Below are positions 7,354 through 47,144 of a stretch of 51,960 bases of DNA, piece by piece. The translations under genes and the position numbers were made by a program. The DNA comes from an uncultured Bacillota bacterium (GTDB lineage Bacteria; Bacillota_I; Bacilli_A; RF39; UBA660): contig CANATJ010000002.1 of assembly GCA_947364595.1 (NCBI GenBank), forward strand, positions 1 through 51,960. The letters run 5' to 3'. Numbering within the stretch: position 1 is the first letter of the stretch; every line of letters begins with the position of its first letter. The notes under the pieces were generated by a model. It saw only the letters and a list, made by a program, of their open reading frames with translations, was not told the origin of the DNA and made no database searches.

Positions 7354-9000
7354 CTAAACCTCTCCTATTACAATAAGCACCATTGGCTTACATTCTGTTT
7401 GCTCGTAAAAATATTTTCCAACCTTATCTCTAATACCAGATTTTATCTTTGCAAAATCAACATAATTAGTTTTAACATTCTCTTTAATAACCGCTAACGA
7501 TAACTTTTCAGCTTCTTTAATTAAATCAATATTTTCCTTTACAAAAATAAATCCTCTAGTTAAAACTTCAGGCCCTGCTAAAACTTCTTTTGTTTGTTTA
7601 TCTAAAGTAGCCGTAATAATAACAATACCATTATCACTTAAAAGCTCCCTATCTTTAAGTACAAGTTCACCAACATCGCCTGCTGCTAAACCATCAATTA
7701 AAATATCATCAACAGCTACCTTTTCACCATTATCAACCAAATTACCATCTTCAAAATAAGCAACTTGACCATTTAATCTAAGTAATATATTATCCTCATT
7801 CATGCCAATTTGCTTAGCAACATTAGCATTAGCTACTTGATGACGATATTCACCAATAACCGGCATATAGTATTTTGGTTTCATTAAATCAAGCATTAAC
7901 ATCAAATCTTCAGAAGATGCATGATGTGATAAATACTTTTTCTTAGGCATCTCCACAACATTAGCGCCAATACGAGCTAAAATATCAAACATCTTAGTTG
8001 CTGTTCTTTCCATACCATCATCAATTGGTGAAGCAAATACCACAGTATCTTCACCATTAATTGTAATAAATTTATCATAACCTCTAACAATTCTTTTTAA
8101 ATTAGAAAAAGGCTTTTCTCTCTCATCTGAAACAATAACCACAATTTTTTCATCATTAACATGTTTAATAGAACAAATACGCTTTTTATCAAAATCAATA
8201 TAATTCATATCAATAGCTTTTAAAATAACATTTTCTAAACGCTTTCCTAAAATAACCACATTACGATCAGTAGTTTTTATTTCATTAAAAAGTTCTTGAA
8301 TACGATAAAGTTGGGCTTGATAAATATTAAATAAAATACGCCCTTCATTGCCATTTAAAACTTCTCTCATCGCATCACTCATACGATGATTTGGTGAAGT
8401 ATAGCCTTTCTTATCTGCATATAAAGATTCAGAAAGTAAACATAAAACTCCTTGTTTACCAACATAAGCTAATTTACCAATATCAGTTTTATAATTTCCA
8501 AGCATTGTTGGATCAAACACAAAATTACCTGTATAAAAAATAGCTCCATCTGGGGTATACAAAACATAACCAACAGTATCTGGGACCATATGAGTCAAAG
8601 ATATTGGAAAAATACTATTTTTACCAAAGTCAATTTTCTTATGTGGTTTTATCTCCACTAAATTTTTAGTACTAAGTCCGCTAGATAATAACTCATCTTT
8701 AATAATTTCTAAAGTGAAAGTTGTACCATAAATTTTTACATCACTAAGATCTTTTAAGATATCACTTAAAGCTCCCATATGTTCATCATGTCCATGGGTA
8801 ATAAAAATACCTTTAACTCTTTTAATATTATCTTTTATATAATCATAGTTAGGAATAATATAATCAACACCTAACATTTTATCATCGGCGTATTTTAAGC
8901 CTGCATCAAAAACAAATATATCGTTATTGACTTCGACAATGTACATGTTTTTCCCGTTTTCATTTAATCCGCCGAGTCCAAATATTTTAATTTTACTCAT
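7354..9000 (-). CDS. rnj: ribonuclease J (beta-CASP metallo-beta-lactamase)
   Basis: Starts MSKIKIFGLGGLNENGKNMY and contains the HGHDEHMG motif. Its 548-aa length is typical of RNase J. Confidence 0.9.
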   Translation of the reverse strand: MSKIKIFGLGGLNENGKNMYIVEVNNDIFVFDAGLKYADDKMLGVDYIIPNYDYIKDNIKRVKGIFITHGHDEHMGALSDILKDLSDVKIYGTTFTLEIIKDELLSSGLSTKNLVEIKPHKKIDFGKNSIFPISLTHMVPDTVGYVLYTPDGAIFYTGNFVFDPTMLGNYKTDIGKLAYVGKQGVLCLLSESLYADKKGYTSPNHRMSDAMREVLNGNEGRILFNIYQAQLYRIQELFNEIKTTDRNVVILGKRLENVILKAIDMNYIDFDKKRICSIKHVNDEKIVVIVSDEREKPFSNLKRIVRGYDKFITINGEDTVVFASPIDDGMERTATKMFDILARIGANVVEMPKKKYLSHHASSEDLMLMLDLMKPKYYMPVIGEYRHQVANANVAKQIGMNEDNILLRLNGQVAYFEDGNLVDNGEKVAVDDILIDGLAAGDVGELVLKDRELLSDNGIVIITATLDKQTKEVLAGPEVLTRGFIFVKENIDLIKEAEKLSLAVIKENVKTNYVDFAKIKSGIRDKVGKYFYEQTECKPMVLIVIGEV

Positions 9001-9075
9001 TTTTTCTCCTTTCTTTTTCTTTTAAAAGCCATAGCAATTATATCAAAAATATATTTAAAAAGCAAATAAAGAGCC

Positions 9076-9996
9076 TTAGCCCTTTATAAAAATATTATTA
9101 AGTTCTTTTCTTGGAAGAAGCATATCAACTCCATCAGTCATCTTAATCTCAAATTCTAAACCCTTATCCTTAAGTTTTTCACCATCTATGCACCACTTTT
9201 TATGAGGCTCTTCTCTTAATTTTATCTTTAATTTATCCGTTCTAAAAAAATAAAAACCAGGTACCTTAGTAATATCACTCATCTTAACATAATACAAACT
9301 TTTAATAATATCCTTTTTCGTCGTAATATTTGAAAGTAAAACTTCAAATTTTCCATCATTTAGTTTTACATCTTGAAAAAAATCAATTCCTCCCATACGA
9401 CTAGCATTACAAATTAAAGCAAGCGAATAAAGACCATTATATGTTTCACCATCAACTTCATAGGTCATTTCAAACAAATGTGTTTTACGATTAAATGATT
9501 TAAGTGCATTTAGTAAATAAGCAAAATATCCCAAATTTTTCTTTAAATTTCTTGGAGTATCATAAGCAACATCAGTAAACTTACCAAGTCCCGCCACATA
9601 AACAAATGGTGTATCATTAATCATACATATATCCATTTTTTTAACAGTTCCATCTAAAATCATTCTTAAATTAGCTACTGGGTTTTTACCCATTCCAAAC
9701 ATTGCTCCTAGATCATTAGCTGTTCCAAGTGGGATATGTGAAAGAATCAATTTTTTACTTCTTTTTAAATTACCAGTAACAATTTCATTAAAAGTTCCAT
9801 CTCCACCCAAAGAAACAACTAAATTAACATCATCATCTAAGCTTTCAATTACCTTTTTAGCATGTCCTGAATATTTAGTAAATATTATATTTGCAGTATA
9901 TCCATACTCACTTAAAACCGTTTCAAATTTTTTCGAAATTACCTCTTTATCATTATGACCACTATTTGGATTACATATAATCACGCATTTTTTCAT
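9076..9996 (-). CDS. dagK: diacylglycerol/lipid kinase (DagK/YegS family)
   Basis: Contains NPNSGHN and the GGDGTFNEIV motif. The start is MKKCVIICNP, preceded by RBS ggtgaag. Confidence 0.8.
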   Translation of the reverse strand: MKKCVIICNPNSGHNDKEVISKKFETVLSEYGYTANIIFTKYSGHAKKVIESLDDDVNLVVSLGGDGTFNEIVTGNLKRSKKLILSHIPLGTANDLGAMFGMGKNPVANLRMILDGTVKKMDICMINDTPFVYVAGLGKFTDVAYDTPRNLKKNLGYFAYLLNALKSFNRKTHLFEMTYEVDGETYNGLYSLALICNASRMGGIDFFQDVKLNDGKFEVLLSNITTKKDIIKSLYYVKMSDITKVPGFYFFRTDKLKIKLREEPHKKWCIDGEKLKDKGLEFEIKMTDGVDMLLPRKELNNIFIKG

Positions 9997-34355: not shown

Positions 34356-36419
34356 TTAATCTCCATTAATTCCTTCTTTATTATTTCTCATATCAAGTGT
34401 AGCTTCATTCACTGCATCATCAATAGTTTTAATTTCATCATGAATCATACTATAACCAATTGCCGCTCCAAAGCCATGTGATAATTCCTTTAATTCTTTA
34501 TTAAGTTTTCTAATATAAGTAAGTGTAGCCTTTTCATCATGACCAACCATAAAAATCAAAAATTCATTACCATTAGTTCTCAAAATTTCACTACCACTAA
34601 GTTGATTATTAATTAAAATCCCGGCTGCCTCAACAATAACCTTATCTCCCTCAACATGACCAAAATTATCATTAATATAAGCAATATTATTTAAATCTAT
34701 AACAATAATAGATTGTGGATAAACCTCACTATTATCCCATTTAATAATATTATCATTTAAATAATTACGATTTTTAAGTGATGTTAAAGTATCAATATAA
34801 CGTAGTTTATCAGCTTTAGAAAGTTTACTATTATAATCTTTCTTACGATTTACAAATTTTCTTGTGAAAATAAGTGCAATTATCAATAAAATAATTATCG
34901 CACTACTTAAAATAATTTGTAATGCTTGATTACTATTATTGTAATGTAAAAGTTTACTATAACTATTATTCATAATTAATCCACTGTTTACAAATGATAA
35001 ATAATAGCTTAAAAGTCCATTGAATACCCTATTACTAGAAGTATCTCTAGAAACAAATCCATAATTATTAGTTAAATCAATAGTTTGAATCTTTTTTAGT
35101 TCTTTCATATTAAGGTGTAAATAATAATCATAAGTATATTCATCAATAGCAGCAACATCTTTTTTACCTAAATGATTAACAAGTTCCTTAGAATTATTAT
35201 ATCCTTTAGTCTTAACACCATTATCTTTTAAATATTTATCAATTTTACTATCTTTAATAGTTAAAACATTATAATCTGTAAGTGAATTTACATTATTAAC
35301 AACTAAATCCGTTTTTTCATTTGCAACCACAGCAATTTTACTATCATAAATAGTAGCTGTATTATAAACATCCATATCATAATTATCATTACCATGATAA
35401 TCAAACACAAAGTCTAATTTATTCGCATTGAAATCTGCAAGTAACTTTTCAATAGATGGATAACTTTTATAATCAATCTCTATATTAGCAGCCTTAGCAA
35501 ACTCACTAATAAATGAATAGTTAAATCCTTTAAGTCCACCTTTAATCGTAACATCATAAGGAGCATTAAAAACAAATCCATAAGTATAACGATCGCTTCT
35601 AAATTTAGCTTGAGCTTTTTCATCTATTTTTCTATATTTGAAATAACTAGTAGTTAAATACTTATTTAAACTTTCCTTATATGTTTCCCTATTCCATTTT
35701 TTAAAATACTTATTAAGTATCTTATTAAGTCTTTCATTATCACCTAAAGTAAGTACATAATCACTAGTATATTCAGTAATATTATAAGCAATATTTAAAG
35801 TTTTATCAGTTAAAATATTTTCTAAATATTCAATCTTTGGAAGAGCTATTGCATCAACTAAACCATTAGATAAAGACGTAAACATTTCATCAGCGCTTAA
35901 ATAAGGTTTAAAAGTTACATTACTACTTCCAGTTAAATATTTACTAATTTTTGTTAAATCATTTTGTAAAGTTCCAATAGTTAAATCTTTAATTTCAGAA
36001 ACACTATTAAAGTATGTATCTTTTTTAACAATTAAAGCATAATTATCACGATATAACAAAATATCTTTATCATTTTTATGTTCAACATTTTTAAGTGCAT
36101 AATCACTTATAGTTTCTTTGTTACCCAAATTCTTATTATAAGGTAATTTATTAAATTCAAGTTTAGTATCTTCCTCTAAATCATTTAAAAAATCGAATAA
36201 AATACCATTACCATTATCATTAATTATTGGCACATTACTTAAAACAGATAAATCAATTAACTTATTTTTATTATTTTCAATCCATTGTTTTTCAGCAGCT
36301 GTTAAAGTAGTTACCTTATCCTCACTAACAAAAAACTGTACTATACCAAAAATCCCTAAAGTTAAAATAACTACTAGGGAAATAATTCCTATCTTCTTAT
36401 TCACTACTTCCACCCGCAT
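34356..36419 (-). CDS. membrane sensor: tandem periplasmic solute-binding-like domains, one TM segment and a degenerate GGDEF domain (NGNEF)
   Basis: The GGDEF-fold motifs are DTLTSLKNRNYL, VIDLNNIAYINDNFGHVEGD and RTNGNEFLIF (34574-34560). The start is uncertain: ATG at 36419 or GTG at 36404. Confidence 0.7.
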   Translation of the reverse strand: MRVEVVNKKIGIISLVVILTLGIFGIVQFFVSEDKVTTLTAAEKQWIENNKNKLIDLSVLSNVPIINDNGNGILFDFLNDLEEDTKLEFNKLPYNKNLGNKETISDYALKNVEHKNDKDILLYRDNYALIVKKDTYFNSVSEIKDLTIGTLQNDLTKISKYLTGSSNVTFKPYLSADEMFTSLSNGLVDAIALPKIEYLENILTDKTLNIAYNITEYTSDYVLTLGDNERLNKILNKYFKKWNRETYKESLNKYLTTSYFKYRKIDEKAQAKFRSDRYTYGFVFNAPYDVTIKGGLKGFNYSFISEFAKAANIEIDYKSYPSIEKLLADFNANKLDFVFDYHGNDNYDMDVYNTATIYDSKIAVVANEKTDLVVNNVNSLTDYNVLTIKDSKIDKYLKDNGVKTKGYNNSKELVNHLGKKDVAAIDEYTYDYYLHLNMKELKKIQTIDLTNNYGFVSRDTSSNRVFNGLLSYYLSFVNSGLIMNNSYSKLLHYNNSNQALQIILSSAIIILLIIALIFTRKFVNRKKDYNSKLSKADKLRYIDTLTSLKNRNYLNDNIIKWDNSEVYPQSIIVIDLNNIAYINDNFGHVEGDKVIVEAAGILINNQLSGSEILRTNGNEFLIFMVGHDEKATLTYIRKLNKELKELSHGFGAAIGYSMIHDEIKTIDDAVNEATLDMRNNKEGINGD

Positions 36420-36864
36420 TTCCATAAGTAATATCATCACTATTCTTACTCTTATAACCAATTACTGGATAAACATCACTATCATCTTTTGTATCAATAA
36501 GAACTTGAACATCATAATATTTAGCATTTTTCTTTCCAATACCATCTAAGATAATATCACCACATGTTTTAGCATCATCCAATTTCATACCATTATCAAC
36601 AGTAATCGTAAAATTCAAAATTCTTCCTTCTTGATGATATACAACTTTTTCTACTCCGTCTTTACCACTTATTCTATCTTTAATATCATCAATAGTTGAA
36701 CCAGAAATCTTATGTTTATCAATATCATCTAACCTATCTCCGTATTTATTATTGCCAATTGAAGATAAAAGGAATAATTTAACAAACAAAAATAATAAAA
36801 TTATTATAAAAACTATTCCAGCAATAATAACTCCCTTTTTATTTTTTCTAATAAAATTTTTCAT
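36397..36864 (-). CDS. hypothetical signal-anchored small protein
   Basis: Contains MKNFIRKNKKGVIIAGIVFIIILLFLFVKLFLL and lies between the pilin-fusion gene and the GGDEF gene. Confidence 0.5.
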   Translation of the reverse strand: MKNFIRKNKKGVIIAGIVFIIILLFLFVKLFLLSSIGNNKYGDRLDDIDKHKISGSTIDDIKDRISGKDGVEKVVYHQEGRILNFTITVDNGMKLDDAKTCGDIILDGIGKKNAKYYDVQVLIDTKDDSDVYPVIGYKSKNSDDITYGNAGGSSE

Positions 36865-36910: not shown

Positions 36911-37921
36911 CTATCTAATCTCATAAGGATTGTCTATACTACCATTCCCAGCTGTTACCTTTGCATTAGAACCTATTGTAATAACTGGTCTAACATTTAA
37001 TAAAGAAGTAGAATTAAAATTAATGCCATCTAATTTACCATTACTAATAACAAATACTTTATTATTTATAGTAGTAAGTGTATATTCTGGTCCGTTTGTT
37101 AAAGAATAAGTAGCTAAATAATTACTGCTAACACACTCTTGCTCAACACCGGTTACACATTTTAAATTATCAGAAGCATTAATAAAATCATTTGCGCTTA
37201 ATAATGACACCTTAGTAACTAAATTACTATCACAATCATCTTGAAATTTCAAGCAATATTTATTAGAAACAATTAAAGATGAATTAGATAAATTACTATA
37301 AAAATCATTATTTAAATAATTATTTATACTTGATTTTTCAAAATTAAAACCACCATTTGTATCAAAAGGTAAACTAGCTATTTTATTATCACTAACGATT
37401 TTAATAGTTCCATCATCATTAACACTAATAATTCTCCATATCATATCATTAAACTTCAAATAATTATTAACATCTTTACCTTTATATATTCCATTTTGTA
37501 AATTTAAAATACTACTTTTTCTAGATTTTGAAATTATTGACTTACTTAAACTTTTTGCCTTACTACTTTCCTTATAAACATAAGTATATTGATTAGATTC
37601 ATATTTTATTTCCACATATCCAGACAAATTCTTTTTCTTGTTTCTTGGATCAATAATATCATCACTAGAAATATATCCTTCTGTAGTAAGAACACTTAAT
37701 TCTAAATTAAAAGGTTGCTCACCTTCATTAGGTAGTTCATTTACATGTTCAACGCCCCAAGCTTTTGCCGCCTTAATAATAATTTCTACCTGAGAGTTAT
37801 AAGCCTTATCTCTTGTAGACCTGATAATCGAACTAACCGCTGGCATTACAATTGAGGCGATTAATCCTAAAATTGCCACTACAGCTATTAATTCTATTAG
37901 CGTAAAGGCTTTTTTATTCAT
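36911..37921 (-). CDS. prepilin-type N-terminal domain fused to a roughly 200-aa C-terminal domain (336 aa)
   Basis: Starts MNKKA|FTLIELIAVVAILGLIASIV. The first roughly 130 aa are paralogous to the pilins at 488-1208. The C-terminal part (MIWRII..DGTIKIV...INNYLNNDFY...VSLLSANDF...VRPVITI) resembles the WRVL/LLS/VRPA-type DUF6273-like fold. Confidence 0.75.
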   Translation of the reverse strand: MNKKAFTLIELIAVVAILGLIASIVMPAVSSIIRSTRDKAYNSQVEIIIKAAKAWGVEHVNELPNEGEQPFNLELSVLTTEGYISSDDIIDPRNKKKNLSGYVEIKYESNQYTYVYKESSKAKSLSKSIISKSRKSSILNLQNGIYKGKDVNNYLKFNDMIWRIISVNDDGTIKIVSDNKIASLPFDTNGGFNFEKSSINNYLNNDFYSNLSNSSLIVSNKYCLKFQDDCDSNLVTKVSLLSANDFINASDNLKCVTGVEQECVSSNYLATYSLTNGPEYTLTTINNKVFVISNGKLDGINFNSTSLLNVRPVITIGSNAKVTAGNGSIDNPYEIR

Positions 37922-38053: not shown

Positions 38054-40174
38054 ATGAAAAAAACTGAATTACTTAGTCCAGCTGGCAACATGGAAACCTT
38101 ACTAGCAGCTATTCACAATGGAGCTGACGCTGTTTATATTGGCGGAAAATTTTTTGGAGCAAGAGCTTTCGCCCCTAATTTCTATAATGAAGATTTAAAA
38201 AAAGCTGTTTATTACGCCCATCTTTATAATGTCAAATTATATGTAACCGCCAATACAGTTATCTTTGAAGATGAAATCGAAGAATTTTTAGAATATATGA
38301 AATTTTTATACGAAATAAATGTTGATGCCGTTATTATGCAAGATATTGGAATGATATCCTTAGTTAGAAAACTTATTCCTAATTTAGAAATTCATGCTTC
38401 CACTCAAATAAACGCGCATAATGATGAAACCTTAAAATTACTTAAATCTATTGGTGTCAAAAGAGTTGTCTTAGCTAGAGAAATGACTATCAATGAAATT
38501 AAAAATCTAAAAACAGATATCGAATTAGAAATATTTATTCACGGTGCTTTATGTGTTTCCTATAGTGGCAATTGCCTTTTTAGTAGTCTAAATGGTGGTA
38601 GAAGTGGAAATAGAGGTAAATGTGTTGGATCATGTAGACTTCCATATACCCTACTTCAAAATAATAAAGAAATAAAAAACGAATATCTTTTAAGCACTAA
38701 AGAACTATGTCAAGTAAATAATATAAAAGAAATACTAGACTGTAATATAGAAAGCTTAAAAATAGAAGGCCGTATGAAAAGCCCAGAATATGTAGGATAT
38801 GTTACTAAAATATATAGAAAACTAATTGATCAATATTATCAAAATCAAGATCCAAAAATTACAGAAGAAGAACTTATAAATCTAACAAAACTATTTAATA
38901 GAAAATTTACTGATGGATACCTATTTGAAGATAACATTTATAATACAAAATCCCCTAATCATCTAGGTTATCCTCTAGGACAAATAATCAAGCTAACAAA
39001 CAAAAAAATATACATAAAACTATCTGATAACTTATATCAAGAAGATGGAATAAGATTTGTAAACAATCACAAAGGAATGATTGTAAATAAACTTTATAAC
39101 GAAAAAGGATTACTAGTAAATCATATTAAAAAAGGAAATATTGCTGTCATTGATAACAAAATAGATATTAAAACAAAAGATGATGTTAGTAAAACAATTG
39201 ACACTAAATTAATCAAAGAAATATCAAATTATCAGAAAAAGAAAATACCTATTTCATTTATTGTAAAAGCAAAGCTAGGTAAACCATTAACCGTTACTAT
39301 TAAAGATAACACAAATACCATTACCAAAACTTCAGTTTCCCTAGAAAAAGCTATAAACAAGCCAACAACTAAAGAAGAAATAATTCAAAAATTAAATAAA
39401 TTAGGTAATACTCCATTTACCATAGAAAATATAGATATCGACTTAGATCAAGTGTTTATTCCCATAAAATATTTAAACGATTTAAGAAGAAACCTTTGTG
39501 ATGAACTAATAAAACAAAAAACTAAAAGTAAAAATAAAATAGAATTTCACTATCAGAAAAAAGAAATCAACGCAAAAGAAAAAAACAGTATAAATATATT
39601 AGTAAGAAATGAAAATCAACTAAAAACAGCTTTAAAATATGCGGACAAAATATATACTGAAGACTTTGAACTATATAAAAAATATAAAAGTAAAAATGTT
39701 TACTATAAATTACCAAGAATAATTCAAAACTATAAACACTTTGAAAACGAAAATTTATTAGTTAGTGAACTTGGAAGTGTATATAAACATAGTAAAAACA
39801 ATAATGTAATAACCGACTATCCATTAAATATTACAAATAGTGAAACTGTAAAATTTTTAAAATCATTAAATGTTAAAACAGTAACCTTATCCGTAGAAAT
39901 TAAAGATTACGACTTAATAAAAAAATACGCAAAAGACACAGAAATAATAACATACGGGAAATTAGATCTTATGATTTTAAAAGACTTCCATTTTAAAGGC
40001 GACAACTTAAGTTTAAAAGATCGCTTTGGAAATGTATTTCCTATTATAAATGGAAAATATACTACTATTTTACATTGCAATAACCTTGTTAAAAATAACG
40101 TAAAAGGAAATTCAAGGATAATATTATTTAATGAAAATGAAAAACAAATAAAAACTCTAATCAATCAAGATTAG
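38054..40174 (+). CDS. peptidase U32 family protein (long, two-module form)
   Basis: Starts ELLSPAGN..LLAAIHNGADAVYIGG and contains the U32 signature E.FIHGALCVSYSGNCLFS. RBS aaggag. Confidence 0.8.
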   Translation: MKKTELLSPAGNMETLLAAIHNGADAVYIGGKFFGARAFAPNFYNEDLKKAVYYAHLYNVKLYVTANTVIFEDEIEEFLEYMKFLYEINVDAVIMQDIGMISLVRKLIPNLEIHASTQINAHNDETLKLLKSIGVKRVVLAREMTINEIKNLKTDIELEIFIHGALCVSYSGNCLFSSLNGGRSGNRGKCVGSCRLPYTLLQNNKEIKNEYLLSTKELCQVNNIKEILDCNIESLKIEGRMKSPEYVGYVTKIYRKLIDQYYQNQDPKITEEELINLTKLFNRKFTDGYLFEDNIYNTKSPNHLGYPLGQIIKLTNKKIYIKLSDNLYQEDGIRFVNNHKGMIVNKLYNEKGLLVNHIKKGNIAVIDNKIDIKTKDDVSKTIDTKLIKEISNYQKKKIPISFIVKAKLGKPLTVTIKDNTNTITKTSVSLEKAINKPTTKEEIIQKLNKLGNTPFTIENIDIDLDQVFIPIKYLNDLRRNLCDELIKQKTKSKNKIEFHYQKKEINAKEKNSINILVRNENQLKTALKYADKIYTEDFELYKKYKSKNVYYKLPRIIQNYKHFENENLLVSELGSVYKHSKNNNVITDYPLNITNSETVKFLKSLNVKTVTLSVEIKDYDLIKKYAKDTEIITYGKLDLMILKDFHFKGDNLSLKDRFGNVFPIINGKYTTILHCNNLVKNNVKGNSRIILFNENEKQIKTLINQD

Positions 40175-40184
40175 AGTTTTTAAT

Positions 40185-41285
40185 TTAATCTATTACATTT
40201 TTAGTAATATGACCAAAGTCAGAATCTTTTAAAGTGAACTTATATGCTGTCTTATCATTTAAAACAAGGAATATACATTCAAAATTATCTATAACTTCAT
40301 AACAAACAATTGGTGAATGTAACTCTTCTTCAACATCAACTAAATCGCTAAAGCTTTTAACATTAATAACATCATATTTACTCAAATTTGGAAGATTATG
40401 AGTTTCAGCAATAACATCCCCATACTCTTTTAATATCTTATTAAGTGCTAATACATACTCAGATTTTTTAGTAATCTTAATCAAGCTCTTAAATAAATTT
40501 ATAAATATAATCAAAGATAGACCTAATAAGCAAAGACCAAATACAAATAATGGAACATTAATAGAAGATTCGCTAACAGTTTGCTTATAAATAGTATTTC
40601 CCCCACTATTAACATAATCTGGTTTTATTTCAAAAGTTTGTTGTAATAAAGGAACATTAAGTGCTATATTATTAGTTTCCTTTAAATTCTTATCGGGTTT
40701 ACCCTTTAAGCCACCATTTACATTAACTTTTAACGCTAAATTTACACGTGCATCAACAGAAAGTCCAAACTGATTTCTAAAATCAGTCATAATAGCATTA
40801 TAAGCATTATAATCTAACTTAATAGTTTTATTAATATTAAATGTTTTACCACTTCCAGTTATATGTTGTAGATTTTCAACTGGGTAAGTTTTTGACCAAA
40901 CCTCAATTTCCTTACCTTCTGCATTTTCATATAAACCACTAGTAGTTGCCACAATCTCATAACTACAATCATAGTCTAAATCTTCAGTACTTTGAAAATT
41001 ATATTTTGCATCAACTTCAATATAATCAATTATAGATGCAATGTATTGTTTATTCATACCTAAATATGGAACCGTAAAAAATTTATTATTCTTTAAATAA
41101 ACACGGTAATCCATTTTTGTATTATAATTGTATGAATATAATACTGGGTTATCACTTTGTTGTGGATTTAAACTTTTATAAACAGAAAAAAGTGATACAC
41201 CAAAAGCGGCAATAGTTAAAATTATTAAAACCACCCTAAACCATTGCTTTAAAATAATTACATTCTCATTCTTCTTTTGCATCAT
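40185..41285 (-). CDS. bitopic membrane protein downstream of sipW (possibly DUF5305-like)
   Basis: The N-terminal TM segment is VVLIILTIAAFGVSLFSV. A roughly 200-aa external domain follows, then a second TM segment (LFVFGLCLLGLSLIIFINLF) and a roughly 100-aa cytoplasmic tail. RBS aaggag. The family name is from memory only. Confidence 0.5.
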   Translation of the reverse strand: MMQKKNENVIILKQWFRVVLIILTIAAFGVSLFSVYKSLNPQQSDNPVLYSYNYNTKMDYRVYLKNNKFFTVPYLGMNKQYIASIIDYIEVDAKYNFQSTEDLDYDCSYEIVATTSGLYENAEGKEIEVWSKTYPVENLQHITGSGKTFNINKTIKLDYNAYNAIMTDFRNQFGLSVDARVNLALKVNVNGGLKGKPDKNLKETNNIALNVPLLQQTFEIKPDYVNSGGNTIYKQTVSESSINVPLFVFGLCLLGLSLIIFINLFKSLIKITKKSEYVLALNKILKEYGDVIAETHNLPNLSKYDVINVKSFSDLVDVEEELHSPIVCYEVIDNFECIFLVLNDKTAYKFTLKDSDFGHITKNVID

Positions 41286-41302
41286 TATCGCTCCTTTTTA
41301 TC

Positions 41303-42442
41303 CTACAACGCACCACTAAGCCATACTGATGGATATCCAATCCATGGTACAACAAATGATACCTTTCCAATAATATTCTCCAAAGTAACACTTCCAACAT
41401 CATTAGCATTATTATGATCACCTTTAGTAATAAACACCTTATTACCATAAACATCATTATCAACATCCACAATACGGTGAACAACATATTTAGTGCCACT
41501 TATAAATTGAATAATATCTCCTTTTTTAAGTTCATTCTTTTCTTTTTTAGTCAGTTTATTTATTACAACTGCATCACCCCTATTAAAGGTTGGTGACATA
41601 CTACCTGACATTACAGCAATTGGTTGATATTTAAATAACCCCATTACAAATCCTGCCATCATAGCAATTAATATAAAAACCGGAATATAAACAACTGGAT
41701 TATACTTTTTTATATCTCTTTTTGATAATCTTTCAGATTTATTAACATGTACATAATTTAAATAAATATATACAGCAAGGGGTAATACAACGCCAACAAC
41801 CGCTGTTACAAACCAATCAAAACTAGGAATAATTGGTACAACAAATGGTGGAATAATTATAAATAATCTATATACAATTGAAAATCTAGGTCCACCAATA
41901 TAAACCAAATAAGTCATTAAAGCACTTTCTAACAAAGTAGGAATTAACGTTGTAGAAGTATAAATAAATATTTCCTTTAAATCAGTAAAATGTTCTGTAA
42001 TAGTTGAAAAATTTAAATTAATTATCATAAACAATAAAATAATTAATATAAAATTAAATTTTGATTTATGTTCATTTTTAACAAGAATATATCTAATATA
42101 CTCTTGAAAAAAGATAATACTCGCAAAAGACCATAAATTTCTAAATACACTTAAAATATCTTTAGAATATGGGGTTCTTTCAAATCCAAATAACAACCCT
42201 AGTAAAAAATATAAAATTATATATACAATAAGTGTAATAAGTAAACTTTGCTGTTTATCTTGTTGACCTTTAATTCTTAAATTAGAATCTTTACCTAACA
42301 TAAATGCAACAAAACACATTATAATCCATATAATAGGATTAATGATTTCATTATAAAGTGGTAGATTCATTGGGACTAATAAAATATCATTAATCACCAA
42401 ATACATAATCAAAAGGCCATATATAGCTATGTTCCTTTTCAT
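41303..42442 (-). CDS. SipW-type (S26B, archaeal/ER-like) signal peptidase I fused to a roughly 260-aa N-terminal polytopic membrane domain
   Basis: The C-terminal roughly 115 aa (SGSMSPTFNRGD...GDIIQF...VVHRIV...TKGDHNNANDV) are collinear with B. subtilis SipW. The N-terminal part has about 8-9 hydrophobic helices. Confidence 0.8.
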   Translation of the reverse strand: MKRNIAIYGLLIMYLVINDILLVPMNLPLYNEIINPIIWIIMCFVAFMLGKDSNLRIKGQQDKQQSLLITLIVYIILYFLLGLLFGFERTPYSKDILSVFRNLWSFASIIFFQEYIRYILVKNEHKSKFNFILIILLFMIINLNFSTITEHFTDLKEIFIYTSTTLIPTLLESALMTYLVYIGGPRFSIVYRLFIIIPPFVVPIIPSFDWFVTAVVGVVLPLAVYIYLNYVHVNKSERLSKRDIKKYNPVVYIPVFILIAMMAGFVMGLFKYQPIAVMSGSMSPTFNRGDAVVINKLTKKEKNELKKGDIIQFISGTKYVVHRIVDVDNDVYGNKVFITKGDHNNANDVGSVTLENIIGKVSFVVPWIGYPSVWLSGAL

Positions 42443-42488
42443 AGTAATTTCCCCTTTTTATATATACCCCAGTATCGCTACTATAAGA

Positions 42489-42517
42489 ATTATAACATAC
42501 TTAAACTACTTTTACAA
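42489..42517 (-). promoter_or_regulatory. sigma-A promoter for the sipW-fusion operon (TTGTAA-17-TGtTATAAT)
   Basis: -35 at 42517-42512 and an extended -10 at 42494-42489. It lies downstream of two hairpins that follow the upstream gene. Confidence 0.5.
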
Positions 42518-42580
42518 GAAAAAAGTCAAAATAAATTTTGACTACCACCTTATAAACGAAAAAAGACTTAAAAGTCTTTT

Positions 42581-43090
42581 TTACGCTTGAACATAATTCA
42601 AAACCATTGTAACATCTTTTTTAAGTTGTGCTTCTGTTGGTTGAGTTTCTACATTAGCGTTATAAGTAACTGTAACAGTAAATGTAGTTGACTCACCAGC
42701 ATTTAAAACATCATTTTCAGCAATGCCAGTATAACTATAAAGAATTGGATCTGTTGAACTAGTATCACTAAATGTTAAAGTACTTAATTTAGCATCTAAG
42801 TCACCACCATTTTTAACTGTAACTGTGTAAGTTAATGAATCAGTTGGTTGTTTTAAAGTAGTGGCAAATGTAGCAGATGTTTTATCTGTACCAACTTCAG
42901 CTTTAGTACTTGCTGCATCTCCAACAGGAGTACCAGCTGTAATAGTTTCGATATGTACATCCCAATTAGATGAGATAGTTGCACTACCATTGATAGTTAA
43001 TTGTTGTGCAAATGCTGCATAACCTACTGCCATTACAAATACAACAGCTAATAAAGCTCCAATTAAGGCATTTTTGTGTTTTGATTCCAT
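42581..43090 (-). CDS. secreted Thr/Ala-rich beta protein with a SipW-cognate-type signal peptide (TasA/BsaA-like candidate fibre subunit)
   Basis: MESKHKNALIGALLAVVFVMAVGYAAFAQQ can be compared with TasA ...GGGTWAAFND. It has a strong RBS aggagg and its own promoter. Its GC content is noticeably higher than the surroundings. Confidence 0.65.
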   Translation of the reverse strand: MESKHKNALIGALLAVVFVMAVGYAAFAQQLTINGSATISSNWDVHIETITAGTPVGDAASTKAEVGTDKTSATFATTLKQPTDSLTYTVTVKNGGDLDAKLSTLTFSDTSSTDPILYSYTGIAENDVLNAGESTTFTVTVTYNANVETQPTEAQLKKDVTMVLNYVQA

Positions 43091-43138
43091 TTTCTTCCTC
43101 CTATACAATTTACTAAGTAGCTTTCCTACTCTACATAC

Positions 43139-43167
43139 ACTATATCATATTTTAATTTTCTCTGCAA
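43139..43167 (-). promoter_or_regulatory. sigma-A promoter for the TasA-like gene (TTGCAG-17-TGaTATAGT)
   Basis: -35 at 43167-43162 and -10 at 43144-43139. Confidence 0.5.
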
Positions 43168-45173: not shown

Positions 45174-46130
45174 TTAAATTTTTAAGTTTAACTTTTTCAC
45201 CTGCTTAGCAATTACATTAATGCCTTCTTCCAAATTAATTTCATATTTATCAAAAATATCTTCAAGTCGCAAGTTACCCATCAATACCTGATTAATACTT
45301 TTATCTATTTCCTCTTTGCCATTTAAAGAAGAATTTTCATAAACATCAAACAAAGATGCAGACATCAAAGAAGAAATAATATACATCTTATCAATAATAT
45401 TATCCCCTTCTAAAAGCATTGTAATTATATTTTTTCTTAAACTCAAAAGTCTTTGATAATTTACAAAGAAAAGTAAATCATCCGCATTATCTAAATCTAA
45501 GGCTGCCGCCTTTTCCATAAAAATTGGTAAAACTTCACCATGCATAAAATTTAAAATATTGCCTTTATTTTTATTTAATAAAGCATGAGTCATTTCATGG
45601 GCATAAATAGTTTTAGCCATATCATCACTTGGGCCAAAAATAAATATTCCTGTAGCACATATAGGAATTTTTTCAAAAAAAGACTCATCCAAATCAGCAT
45701 TCTCATAAAAACTATAATTTACAACATAACCATTTCTTTTCGCTTTGTTTATTATTGTTAAAGGTATATCTGTCACCTTTACTAATTCAGACTTTTCTTT
45801 TATATACTCTATAACTTGGTCATACATTGCCAAAGGAAAATCAAACCCAAAACGAGCAAACAATTCCATTGACAAATCATCATCATTAAATATGCAAGGA
45901 ACAGTTAAATCAATATTCTTCATATGTTTTTTAATTATATATTCACCACATTTTAAAATTTCTTCCTCATTACAATCATCAAATTTAATTTCATTAACAT
46001 TTGCACTAAAATCACAAAACATAATATCAACTAATTTTTCGTAATTTGAAGATTCAAAAAAAGCCGTTTGAAAACTTTCATATTTAAACAAAGCCATCGC
46101 CTTTTTTAATTCACTTTCGTAACAATCCAT
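45174..46130 (-). CDS. cytoplasmic HExxH (HEMTH) protein, paralog B; family not recognised
   Basis: It has no signal peptide and contains AKTIYAHEMTHALLNKNKGN...GEVLPIFMEKAAALDLD. It is collinear with its neighbour over the full length. Confidence 0.6.
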   Translation of the reverse strand: MDCYESELKKAMALFKYESFQTAFFESSNYEKLVDIMFCDFSANVNEIKFDDCNEEEILKCGEYIIKKHMKNIDLTVPCIFNDDDLSMELFARFGFDFPLAMYDQVIEYIKEKSELVKVTDIPLTIINKAKRNGYVVNYSFYENADLDESFFEKIPICATGIFIFGPSDDMAKTIYAHEMTHALLNKNKGNILNFMHGEVLPIFMEKAAALDLDNADDLLFFVNYQRLLSLRKNIITMLLEGDNIIDKMYIISSLMSASLFDVYENSSLNGKEEIDKSINQVLMGNLRLEDIFDKYEINLEEGINVIAKQVKKLNLKI

Positions 46131-46160: not shown

Positions 46161-47144
46161 CTAAAATTTACTTAGTTTTTTTACTTGCTTGCTCATTATT
46201 TTTGCCCCATTTTCTAAACTAGCTTCATAATGATCAAACACATCCTCTAAAACAGCATCTCCCATAAGAACATCATTAACATGATTATTAATTTCTTTCT
46301 TTAAAGATAATGAACCCTTTTCATAAGTTTCAAATAAAGCAGTTGCCAATAAAGAAGATACAATATATGTTTCATCAACAATAGTATCAAAAGCACTTTC
46401 CTCATTATAATCTTGATTAATTTTATCAATAATATCCTGTTTTATATTTAAAATTCTTCTTAACTTAGTTAGTAAAAGTAATTCTCCAGAATCATCCAAA
46501 TCCAAAGCTGCCACTCTTTCCATAAAAATCGGCAAAGCTTCACTATATAACAAGTTTAAAACATTTCCTTTATGTCTATTTATTAACGCATGAGTCATTT
46601 CATGAACATAAATAGTTTTAGCCATATCATCACATGATCCAAAAACAGATATTTCATTTGTACAAACAGGCATATTTTCAAAAAAAGCATCTTTTAAATT
46701 CTTTGATCCATAAAACCAAGTAGATAGTACATGTCCATTTTTACTTTTGTCAACATCTATGTTAAGTGGAATATCCGTAACATTCCTTAACTCAACATGA
46801 TTTTTTACATAATCAATTACTTGGTTATATTGTTCCTCTTTAATATAAGGTCCAAAACGAGCCATTAACTGCGTTGACAAATCATCACCATTAGTATATG
46901 GAATTCTTAAATCTATATCATCCATATGCTTTTCTATTACATATTTACCCGCACTTAATAATTCGTTCTTATCACAAAATAAATATTTAAGGCGCTTATC
47001 TTTTTTGGTTAGTAAATTACTTAACATAACTTCCCTTAACTTTTGATATTCCAATGTTTCAAAAAACGCCGTTTGAAAACTCTCATATTTATAAAAAAGC
47101 ATCTTTATTTTTAATCTATGTTTTTCGTTAGCAGTAAGCTCCAT
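46161..47144 (-). CDS. cytoplasmic HExxH (HEMTH) protein, paralog A
   Basis: Contains AKTIYVHEMTHALINRHKGN...SEALPIFMERVAALDLD. RBS aaggaggg. Its own promoter is TTGACA (47195-47190), a 16-nt spacer, then TATAAT (47173-47168). Confidence 0.6.
   Translation of the reverse strand: MELTANEKHRLKIKMLFYKYESFQTAFFETLEYQKLREVMLSNLLTKKDKRLKYLFCDKNELLSAGKYVIEKHMDDIDLRIPYTNGDDLSTQLMARFGPYIKEEQYNQVIDYVKNHVELRNVTDIPLNIDVDKSKNGHVLSTWFYGSKNLKDAFFENMPVCTNEISVFGSCDDMAKTIYVHEMTHALINRHKGNVLNLLYSEALPIFMERVAALDLDDSGELLLLTKLRRILNIKQDIIDKINQDYNEESAFDTIVDETYIVSSLLATALFETYEKGSLSLKKEINNHVNDVLMGDAVLEDVFDHYEASLENGAKIMSKQVKKLSKF

Follow-up and report, generated by a model that had tools for sequence, protein, structure and literature searches.

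Does a signal peptidase that is fused to a large membrane domain, and whose gene is flanked by those of a small secreted protein and of a partner with two transmembrane (TM) segments, serve the assembly of an extracellular fibre? The question is raised by three genes on contig CANATJ010000002.1 (assembly GCA_947364595.1) of an uncultured Bacillota bacterium; the whole stretch of 51,960 nucleotides that was analysed is referred to as the window. In the original prediction, made from the DNA letters, the locus had been described as a SipW-type peptidase with a TasA/BsaA-like substrate. Fibres of the TasA superfamily are a cross-domain way to build biofilm matrices, and to our knowledge it is not known how their subunits pass from membrane to growing fibre in the absence of a chaperone or usher. 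A role in fibre secretion and polymerisation is the best reading of the locus, which probably constitutes an AbpX-type (TasA-superfamily) extracellular fibre system with a dedicated polytopic peptidase and a DUF5305 helper protein.

The locus comprises, in this order, gene A (42581-43090), which codes for a 169-amino acid protein interpreted as an AbpX-like (TasA-superfamily) fibre subunit precursor from its open reading frame (ORF), a homologue family with over 600 members, and its homology to AbpX; gene B (41303-42442), which codes for a 379-amino acid protein composed of an N-terminal domain with eight TM helices and a signal peptidase I; and gene C (40185-41285), which codes for a 366-amino acid DUF5305 protein (PF17231). 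All three are located on the minus strand, to which the positions of their features given below also refer, with the ATG of gene A at 43090; the ORFs and their sizes are as originally predicted. Identical gene order and sizes are found in two independent assemblies (runs SRR14836527 and SRR14836529), so that the long fused ORF of gene B is no assembly artefact. In an exhaustive search with residues 1-250 of its product, the representative clusters at E ≤ 1e-3 numbered 992. Of the full-length matches, almost all are 375-400 amino acids long and carry the eight-TM domain at the N-terminus; the fusion is the norm of the family. Relatives are encoded in at least 520 species-representative genomes, as counted in a scan with a closer, less diverse alignment. 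A third search for homologues, run with a diverse profile, gave mostly the same close clade. The hosts are mostly metagenome-assembled genomes of small size (1.25-1.55 Mb) from the gut, labelled Bacilli, Tenericutes, or Candidatus Coprosoma; others belong to the Christensenellaceae, other Clostridia, and the Heliobacteriaceae, and a distant member originates from the Anaerolineales.

The co-occurrence of the three genes, the analysis of which had been suggested with the original prediction, was followed over 78 fetched loci. The DUF5305 gene is present in all of them and is located directly downstream of the peptidase gene, on the same strand, in 77. Relatives of gene A occur in 71, as one to eight tandem copies per locus, and four of the seven exceptions have less than 750 bp of upstream sequence. 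Recurring in independent assemblies and in 78 of 78 species-level loci, the arrangement is far beyond chance.

What, then, is the product of gene A? Its homologues are of similar length and are labelled hypothetical or DUF11-containing in the databases. AbpX of Pyrodictium abyssi is a member of the TasA superfamily that undergoes calcium-dependent donor-strand polymerisation (10.64898/2026.01.04.697558); its sequence was taken from the supplement of that preprint. When used as a query, AbpX matches gene A-family ORFs located upstream of fused peptidases in four loci (L076, L074, L077, and L060) with E values of 2e-11 to 5e-7. A profile of the gene A family, built by extension from the window protein across the fetched loci, scores 37.9 bits against full AbpX, 23.7 bits against AbpX without its signal peptide (maximum of 500 shuffles, 12.2), and 17.5 bits against the core only (shuffle maximum, 10.4). 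The narrow profile of the window clade, in turn, scores 25-42 bits against the core regions alone of the intermediates, with shuffle maxima of 6-13. Since both the profile and the intermediate matches lie above those of the shuffles, a remote homology of the gene A family to AbpX is established by way of profiles and intermediates. TasA is matched more weakly (21 bits), and neither the Peptidase_M73 (TasA/camelysin) model nor a SipW-cognate signal model of Pfam or NCBIfam matched gene A at E ≤ 1. Membership in the TasA/camelysin family was rejected because the Peptidase_M73 model was unmatched, and the SipW-cognate class that had been proposed for the signal is not borne out. The idea of a TasA/BsaA-like substrate holds at the level of the superfamily, the closest characterised relative being AbpX, not TasA or BsaA.

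The junction between signal peptide and mature protein is common to gene A and AbpX, reading GYA/AF..L.I.G.A.I in the former and TYA/QWSETLSLSATI in the latter, where the slash marks the cleavage position (predicted for gene A). The signal peptide of gene A (residues 1-25, ...LIGALLAVVFVMAVGYA; 43016-43090), as delimited by conservation and by the AbpX alignment, aligns with ...GLTYA/QWSE of AbpX. The segment that follows (residues 26-44, AFAQQLTINGSATISSNWD; 42959-43015) corresponds in the alignment to the donor strand of AbpX (W2-I12) and is predicted, from conservation, the structural model, and this alignment, to be an N-terminal donor strand; its hydrophobic residues alternate (F2, L6, I8, A12, I14, and W18 of the mature form). 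From AbpX to the window, the junctions constitute a graded series, running from GLTYA/QWSETLSLSATISTGSLDVDI in AbpX through GAGYA/WWSESVQVNTTVATGYLDVDA in L077, GAGYA/AWSENIPVHGTVNTGELDW in L076, and AVGYA/AFSANLTISGTATASGTWDVKF in L060 to AVGYA/AFAQQLTINGSATISSNWDVHI in gene A of the window; the corresponding sequence of TasA is GGTWA/AFNDIKSKDATFASGTLDL. Among the 133 family members with the motif, Gly is found at position -3 in 114 and Ala at position -1 in 117, while an aromatic residue (F, W, or Y) occupies position +2 in every one, being F2 in the window protein. The frequency of the majority residue in the family is 0.85 over residues 9-25, 0.78 over the next 19 residues, and 0.60 in the core.

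Cleavage after Gly-Tyr-Ala would yield a mature form of 144 amino acids without Cys, with a predicted isoelectric point of 4.22 and an Asp plus Glu content of 11.1%. In the structural model of the precursor (predicted local distance difference test score, pLDDT, 88), a TM helix at residues 2-26 is followed by an unstructured stretch at 27-44 and an eight-strand sandwich, the strands of which have pLDDT values above 90. The beta-sandwich core is assigned to residues 45-169 (42584-42958), on the basis of this model, of the weak domain matches described below, and of the core-only profile match to AbpX, which lies above that of every shuffle.

Several results weigh against the assignment of gene A to an AbpX-type fibre system. 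Compared directly by BLASTP, gene A and AbpX show no significant similarity (E 0.24); hhalign between AbpX and the window clade gives a P value of 1.3e-3 and a probability of 19%, the alignment being collinear across 132 columns. The window-clade profile alone reaches only 5.0 bits against mature AbpX; this clade was insufficient by itself, and the link required the diverse profile derived from the loci. In the comparison of the gene A model with the Protein Data Bank (PDB) by Foldseek, nothing was found at E ≤ 1e-3, and AbpX (9sj2 and 9rhp) and TasA are absent from the top 50 matches; both AbpX entries were included in the searched library, and Foldseek has difficulty with small beta-sandwiches from which a helix is detached. 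The family profile had no match among the PDB sequences. At position +4 of the mature protein, gene A has Gln in place of the calcium-coordinating acid of AbpX; over the 133 members, this position is Q in 52, T in 49, V in 12, S in 9, and E in 8. Finally, an anchor protein, a tip protein, and a second pilin were not found in the window.

On such grounds, gene A could be taken for a non-polymerising surface or secreted Ig-like protein, for instance a coat protein, an adhesin, or an antigenically variable protein, with the peptidase serving for release only and no fibre being formed. The absence of the acid at +4 would agree with this, as would the direct domain matches of the core, which in Pfam and NCBIfam are limited to weak ones to CARDB, DUF11, and choice-of-anchor-D, and the Foldseek matches ranking after the first, which are generic Ig-like sandwiches. 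The two to eight tandem divergent paralogues in relatives would also suit surface variation. Against it stand the segment after the cleavage site, which is more conserved than the core, shares pattern and register with the AbpX donor strand, and is unpaired in the monomer model, and the homology to AbpX, which runs through the core; the proposal is considered improbable.

A different filament type is brought into play by the first Foldseek match, the AAP type IV pilus subunit of S. acidocaldarius (E 0.015). If gene A were type IV pilin-like, its hydrophobic N-terminal helix would be retained and form the filament core; a long N-terminal helix preceding a beta-sandwich, as in the model, and the presence of a genuine pilin-like gene (36911-37921) at a distance of 3 kb would speak for it. 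The superposition is poor, however, with a root-mean-square deviation of 17 Å, and gene A lacks an N-methylation or prepilin motif, PF07963 being unmatched. Moreover, the peptidase conserved next to it is a signal peptidase of the S26 type, which cuts after the helix, and not a prepilin peptidase, and in AbpX, to which the family is homologous, the helix is removed. A type IV pilin-like subunit is therefore held to be very improbable, and donor-strand fibres of the AbpX type are still the preferred explanation for gene A.

Which enzyme would process this precursor? The original prediction of a peptidase fused C-terminally to a large polytopic domain is confirmed for gene B by the domain match described here and by an AlphaFold model with eight TM helices plus an anchor. 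Its residues 248-374 match TIGR02228, the model of archaeal-type signal peptidase I (MEROPS S26B-like), with 96.8 bits (E 1.1e-27; cutoff, 51.85 bits), and Pfam Peptidase_S26 is matched as well (4.4e-10); TM anchor and catalytic domain of the endoplasmic reticulum (ER)/archaeal type occupy residues 249-379 (41303-41698). Ser281, His322, Asp342, and Asp348 are invariant in gene B and 73 diverse relatives, with His taking the place of Lys. By Foldseek, the catalytic domain resembles human SEC11A/C (7p2p and 7p2q; E 8e-5, target-normalised TM-score 0.61-0.63), and SipA of S. pyogenes was also matched. According to the positive-inside rule, the catalytic domain is external and the N-terminus of gene B is cytoplasmic. 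Gene B is an ER/archaeal-type signal peptidase I and can be called SipW-type in this broad sense only. Identity as a SipW orthologue was rejected, the Bacillus equivalog model NF046067 giving 74.1 bits against a cutoff of 190; SipW is a protein of about 190 amino acids with a single TM helix at each terminus, while gene B, with its 379 amino acids, has eight extra TM helices at the N-terminus.

These eight helices make up residues 1-248 (41699-42442) and are seen in a hydropathy scan as well as in the AlphaFold model (pLDDT 83; predicted template modelling score 0.76), where they span residues 2-25, 30-50, 60-85, 96-123, 128-151, 155-183, 185-201, and 210-236. A ninth helix (249-267) is the anchor of the peptidase, and a short C-terminal helix follows the beta-rich catalytic domain. 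No Pfam or NCBIfam family consistently matches the eight-TM domain in gene B or the 73 relatives, and in the Foldseek search of the PDB with the full fusion the catalytic domain alone was matched. Near-invariant residues of the domain are Y74, G82, N102, E114, R117, Y178, P203, P206, and W210; its conserved external loops read GFE(K/R)TPYSK and PxxPxxDWF. The CPBP and exosortase motifs that had not been found at first inspection are indeed lacking, and membership in these families was rejected. Hidden Markov models of CPBP proteases and of exosortases or archaeosortases have no match in the 73 members. Set against the catalytic motifs (EExxxR/FxxxH/HxxxN, or the Cys-Arg-His triad), the domain offers only the conserved E114-x-x-R117; none of its His or Cys residues is conserved, which speaks against CPBP or exosortase chemistry. 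Whether the domain would turn out to belong to a common, already characterised family had been asked with the original prediction; it is common, as the number of clusters tells, and it has been noted in the literature, but it is uncharacterised.

Two roles can be considered for the eight-TM domain. It might itself be an enzyme or a transporter, such as an intramembrane protease, a subunit-modifying transferase, or a conduit for export. The near-invariant polar residues in or near the membrane (N102, E114-x-x-R117, Y74, and Y178) and the conserved external loops would be compatible with such an activity, and in size the domain equals many membrane enzymes. This is judged to be quite improbable in view of the missing family and fold matches and of the lack of His or Cys for the chemistries named above; furthermore, the domain was never clearly seen apart from the peptidase. 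Peptidase_S26 is present in 72 of the 73 sampled relatives. The signal helix of the subunit, in turn, is unusually conserved, and this, together with the fusion of the eight-TM domain in cis, suggests intramembrane recognition of the substrate. Most likely, the domain would dock the conserved signal helix, and possibly also DUF5305, by which specificity would be conferred on the enzyme and cleavage be placed where assembly occurs.

The third protein had been predicted to contain two TM segments and had tentatively been linked with DUF5305, and both are confirmed. It matches the whole model PF17231 (positions 1-217) with 73.9 bits (E 1.7e-20; cutoff, 29 bits), and its layout is that of a TM helix at residues 18-36, an external domain, a second TM helix at 244-262, and a cytoplasmic domain. 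The DUF5305 protein has been described as a putative accessory subunit of signal peptidase I (10.64898/2026.01.04.697558), and a link between signal peptidase and DUF5305 is also reported in work on haloarchaeal tafi systems (PMC11821415, PMC12337348).

From these components, the following route is proposed for an AbpX-type system. The abundant 169-amino acid precursor would be exported by Sec and stay anchored in the membrane through its conserved signal peptide. The polytopic peptidase (Ser281/His322/Asp), together with the co-translated DUF5305 protein, would cut after Gly-Tyr-Ala, and the new N-terminus A-F-x-x-x-L-x-I-x-G-x-A-x-I would be freed. This amphipathic strand would then fill the incomplete beta-sandwich of the next subunit by donor-strand complementation, eventually leading to a surface fibril. 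In a more far-reaching version, the eight-TM domain would be an intramembrane receptor and assembly platform that, with DUF5305, couples cleavage to donor-strand insertion, while the fibres of the gut clade, with Gln or Thr at +4, would be calcium-free and those of relatives composed of up to eight paralogues. This version is speculative and, taken as a whole, unlikely; if true, it would amount to a chaperone- and usher-free assembly machine in Gram-positive bacteria and archaea.

An excess of subunit over enzyme would follow from the expression signals of the locus, i.e., the strong ribosome-binding site of gene A and the hairpins behind it, which had been pointed out before along with the elevated guanine-plus-cytosine (GC) content. 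The Shine-Dalgarno sequence AGGAGG (43097-43102) is located 6 nucleotides upstream of the ATG, and the GC content of gene A is 33.3%, versus 26% in genes B and C and 27.3% in the whole window. On its 3' side, two tandem hairpins with U-runs (42512-42586) have a folding energy of -24.7 kcal/mol (z = -6.72), and none of 200 shuffled sequences was equally stable. They are likely an intrinsic terminator or attenuator, in which case subunit mRNA would exceed peptidase mRNA. In the spacer before gene B, a promoter-like TTGTAA-17-TGnTATAAT with an extended -10 element (42489-42517) is no more than a match to the consensus. In this AT-rich DNA the promoter scan is uninformative, sigma-70-like matches being as frequent as expected by chance (27 observed versus 26 expected). 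Gene C, with an AAGGAG of its own, begins 17 nucleotides beyond the stop codon of gene B, and a bidirectional terminator hairpin (40149-40182) is common to gene C and the convergent gene of a U32 peptidase.

With respect to gene content, the window locus is a minimal version of the module, since it contains a single pilin gene; a search of the window yielded no further paralogues of gene A. In three relatives, seven or eight tandem divergent subunit genes are located upstream of the peptidase gene (L003, 882-5789; L035, 3-5395; L047, 763-5848), which suggests heteropolymeric fibres or surface variation. Four other loci encode, after the DUF5305 gene, a protein of 620-790 amino acids in which the gene A domain is combined with the same signal/donor-strand N-terminus (L070, 8152-10023; L071, 7809-9890; L072, 8571-10571; L078, 7141-9519). 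This protein is likely a tip adhesin or anchor subunit and has no counterpart in the window. In L060, a second S26 signal peptidase of canonical size (189 amino acids; 8877-9446) is encoded downstream of the peptidase/DUF5305 pair, after a gene A-like gene.

The surroundings of the locus contain further genes of note. On the minus strand, 36911-37921 codes for a 336-amino acid protein that carries the methylation motif of type IV pilins at its N-terminus (KKAFTLIELIAVV..., PF07963) and a DUF6273 domain at its C-terminus; the gene is found past the convergent U32 gene, some 2.3 kb downstream of that for DUF5305. With it, the region carries a surface-filament subunit of a second and unrelated type. 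The adjoining 155-amino acid ORF (36397-36864, minus strand) has no Pfam match. About 4 kb from the locus, 34356-36461 (minus strand) codes for a 701-amino acid protein with an SBP_bac_3 extracellular solute-binding domain and a GGDEF diguanylate cyclase domain. On the other side, two tandem paralogous ORFs of 318 and 327 amino acids (45174-46130 and 46161-47144, both minus strand) have no Pfam match and share the motif HEMTHAL (HExxH), which resembles that of zinc metalloproteases; they may therefore be peptidases of an uncharacterised family. Conservation of the pair beside argS is seen in two related contigs (L079 and L080). A strongly negative GC skew extends over the whole window (1-51960), and the minus strand carries nearly all of the long ORFs. 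Among the 46 ORFs of at least 120 amino acids, four are on the plus strand, the sole large one being the U32 peptidase gene (38054-40174). The window apparently lies entirely within one replichore of a genome with a GC content of about 27%.

How much of this is new? The fusion architecture and the gene composition had been regarded as different from the established TasA and BsaA systems in the original prediction. The ten-TM peptidase and DUF5305 gene set is, however, already known from AbpX loci (10.64898/2026.01.04.697558), and the connection of signal peptidase with DUF5305 from the tafi papers as well; the window locus extends this set, so that the gain is an extension, not the discovery of a kind. 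Relative to the preprint, as far as could be seen, what is added comprises a divergent pilin clade of gut Bacilli to which AbpX is invisible by BLAST, the replacement of the acid at +4, the scale of the family, the tandem arrays in relatives, and the eight-TM domain without family or fold match. The AbpX-type module is hereby placed in abundant uncultured gut Bacilli with small genomes, and it is widespread, as the counts of clusters and species genomes indicate. The minimal three-gene locus would be a convenient test case for the function of the eight-TM domain and for the question of whether calcium coordination is dispensable for assembly.

Among the known systems, the signal peptidase complex of the eukaryotic ER (SEC11A/C and SPCS1-3; 7p2p and 7p2q) provides the closest structural match to the catalytic domain and is also similar in that additional TM helices surround the catalytic subunit, which is accompanied by a bitopic or two-TM accessory protein. 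In gene B, the extra helices are fused in cis and have no detectable similarity to SPCS1 or SPCS2, and the enzyme would be dedicated to one substrate family, while the ER complex is general. With TasA-SipW-TapA of Bacillus subtilis and BsaA-SipW of Clostridium perfringens, the locus shares a dedicated ER/archaeal-type peptidase encoded beside a fibre subunit gene and, in the case of TasA, a similar junction (GGTWA/AFND versus GYA/AFAQ in gene A) and the weak profile match. It differs from them in the size of the peptidase, gene B having 9-10 TM helices and SipW two, in the lack of a Peptidase_M73/TasA match in Pfam, and in the presence of a DUF5305 protein instead of TapA.

The haloarchaeal tafi, or Tat-dependent bundling pili (TafA/TafE), likewise combine a dedicated peptidase, a DUF5305 protein, and donor-strand subunits, the latter being predicted for the window locus. 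There, the peptidase TafD has been found experimentally to be required for subunit processing, and TafG is the DUF5305 protein (PMC11821415, PMC12337348). TafD has four TM helices and an extra C-terminal domain, without the N-terminal eight-TM domain, and the tafi subunits are exported by Tat and encoded in loci of seven genes.

The AbpX systems are those to which the window locus is compared most directly. Gene A departs from AbpX in having Gln, or in its family Thr, at mature position +4 instead of the calcium-coordinating acid, in the lack of a Cys pair, in an Asp plus Glu content of 11% versus about 15%, and in a similarity that is visible only via profiles and intermediates and was not retrieved by Foldseek. 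Furthermore, the locus is minimal, without minor subunit, tip, or anchor gene, and its host belongs to the small-genome gut Bacilli. What both have in common is a small acidic subunit, with 144 amino acids and an isoelectric point of 4.2 in the mature form of gene A and about 4 in the AbpX type; a signal/donor-strand junction in which the second residue of the mature protein is aromatic; and an adjacent signal peptidase I of about ten TM helices together with a DUF5305 accessory gene. According to the preprint of January 2026, the AbpX-associated signal peptidases I of bacteria and archaea have ten TM helices, and bacterial abpX loci often adjoin genes of cyclic di-GMP enzymes (10.64898/2026.01.04.697558). 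The module is likewise found in Bacillota and Chloroflexota, and in the window, too, a diguanylate cyclase gene is located nearby.

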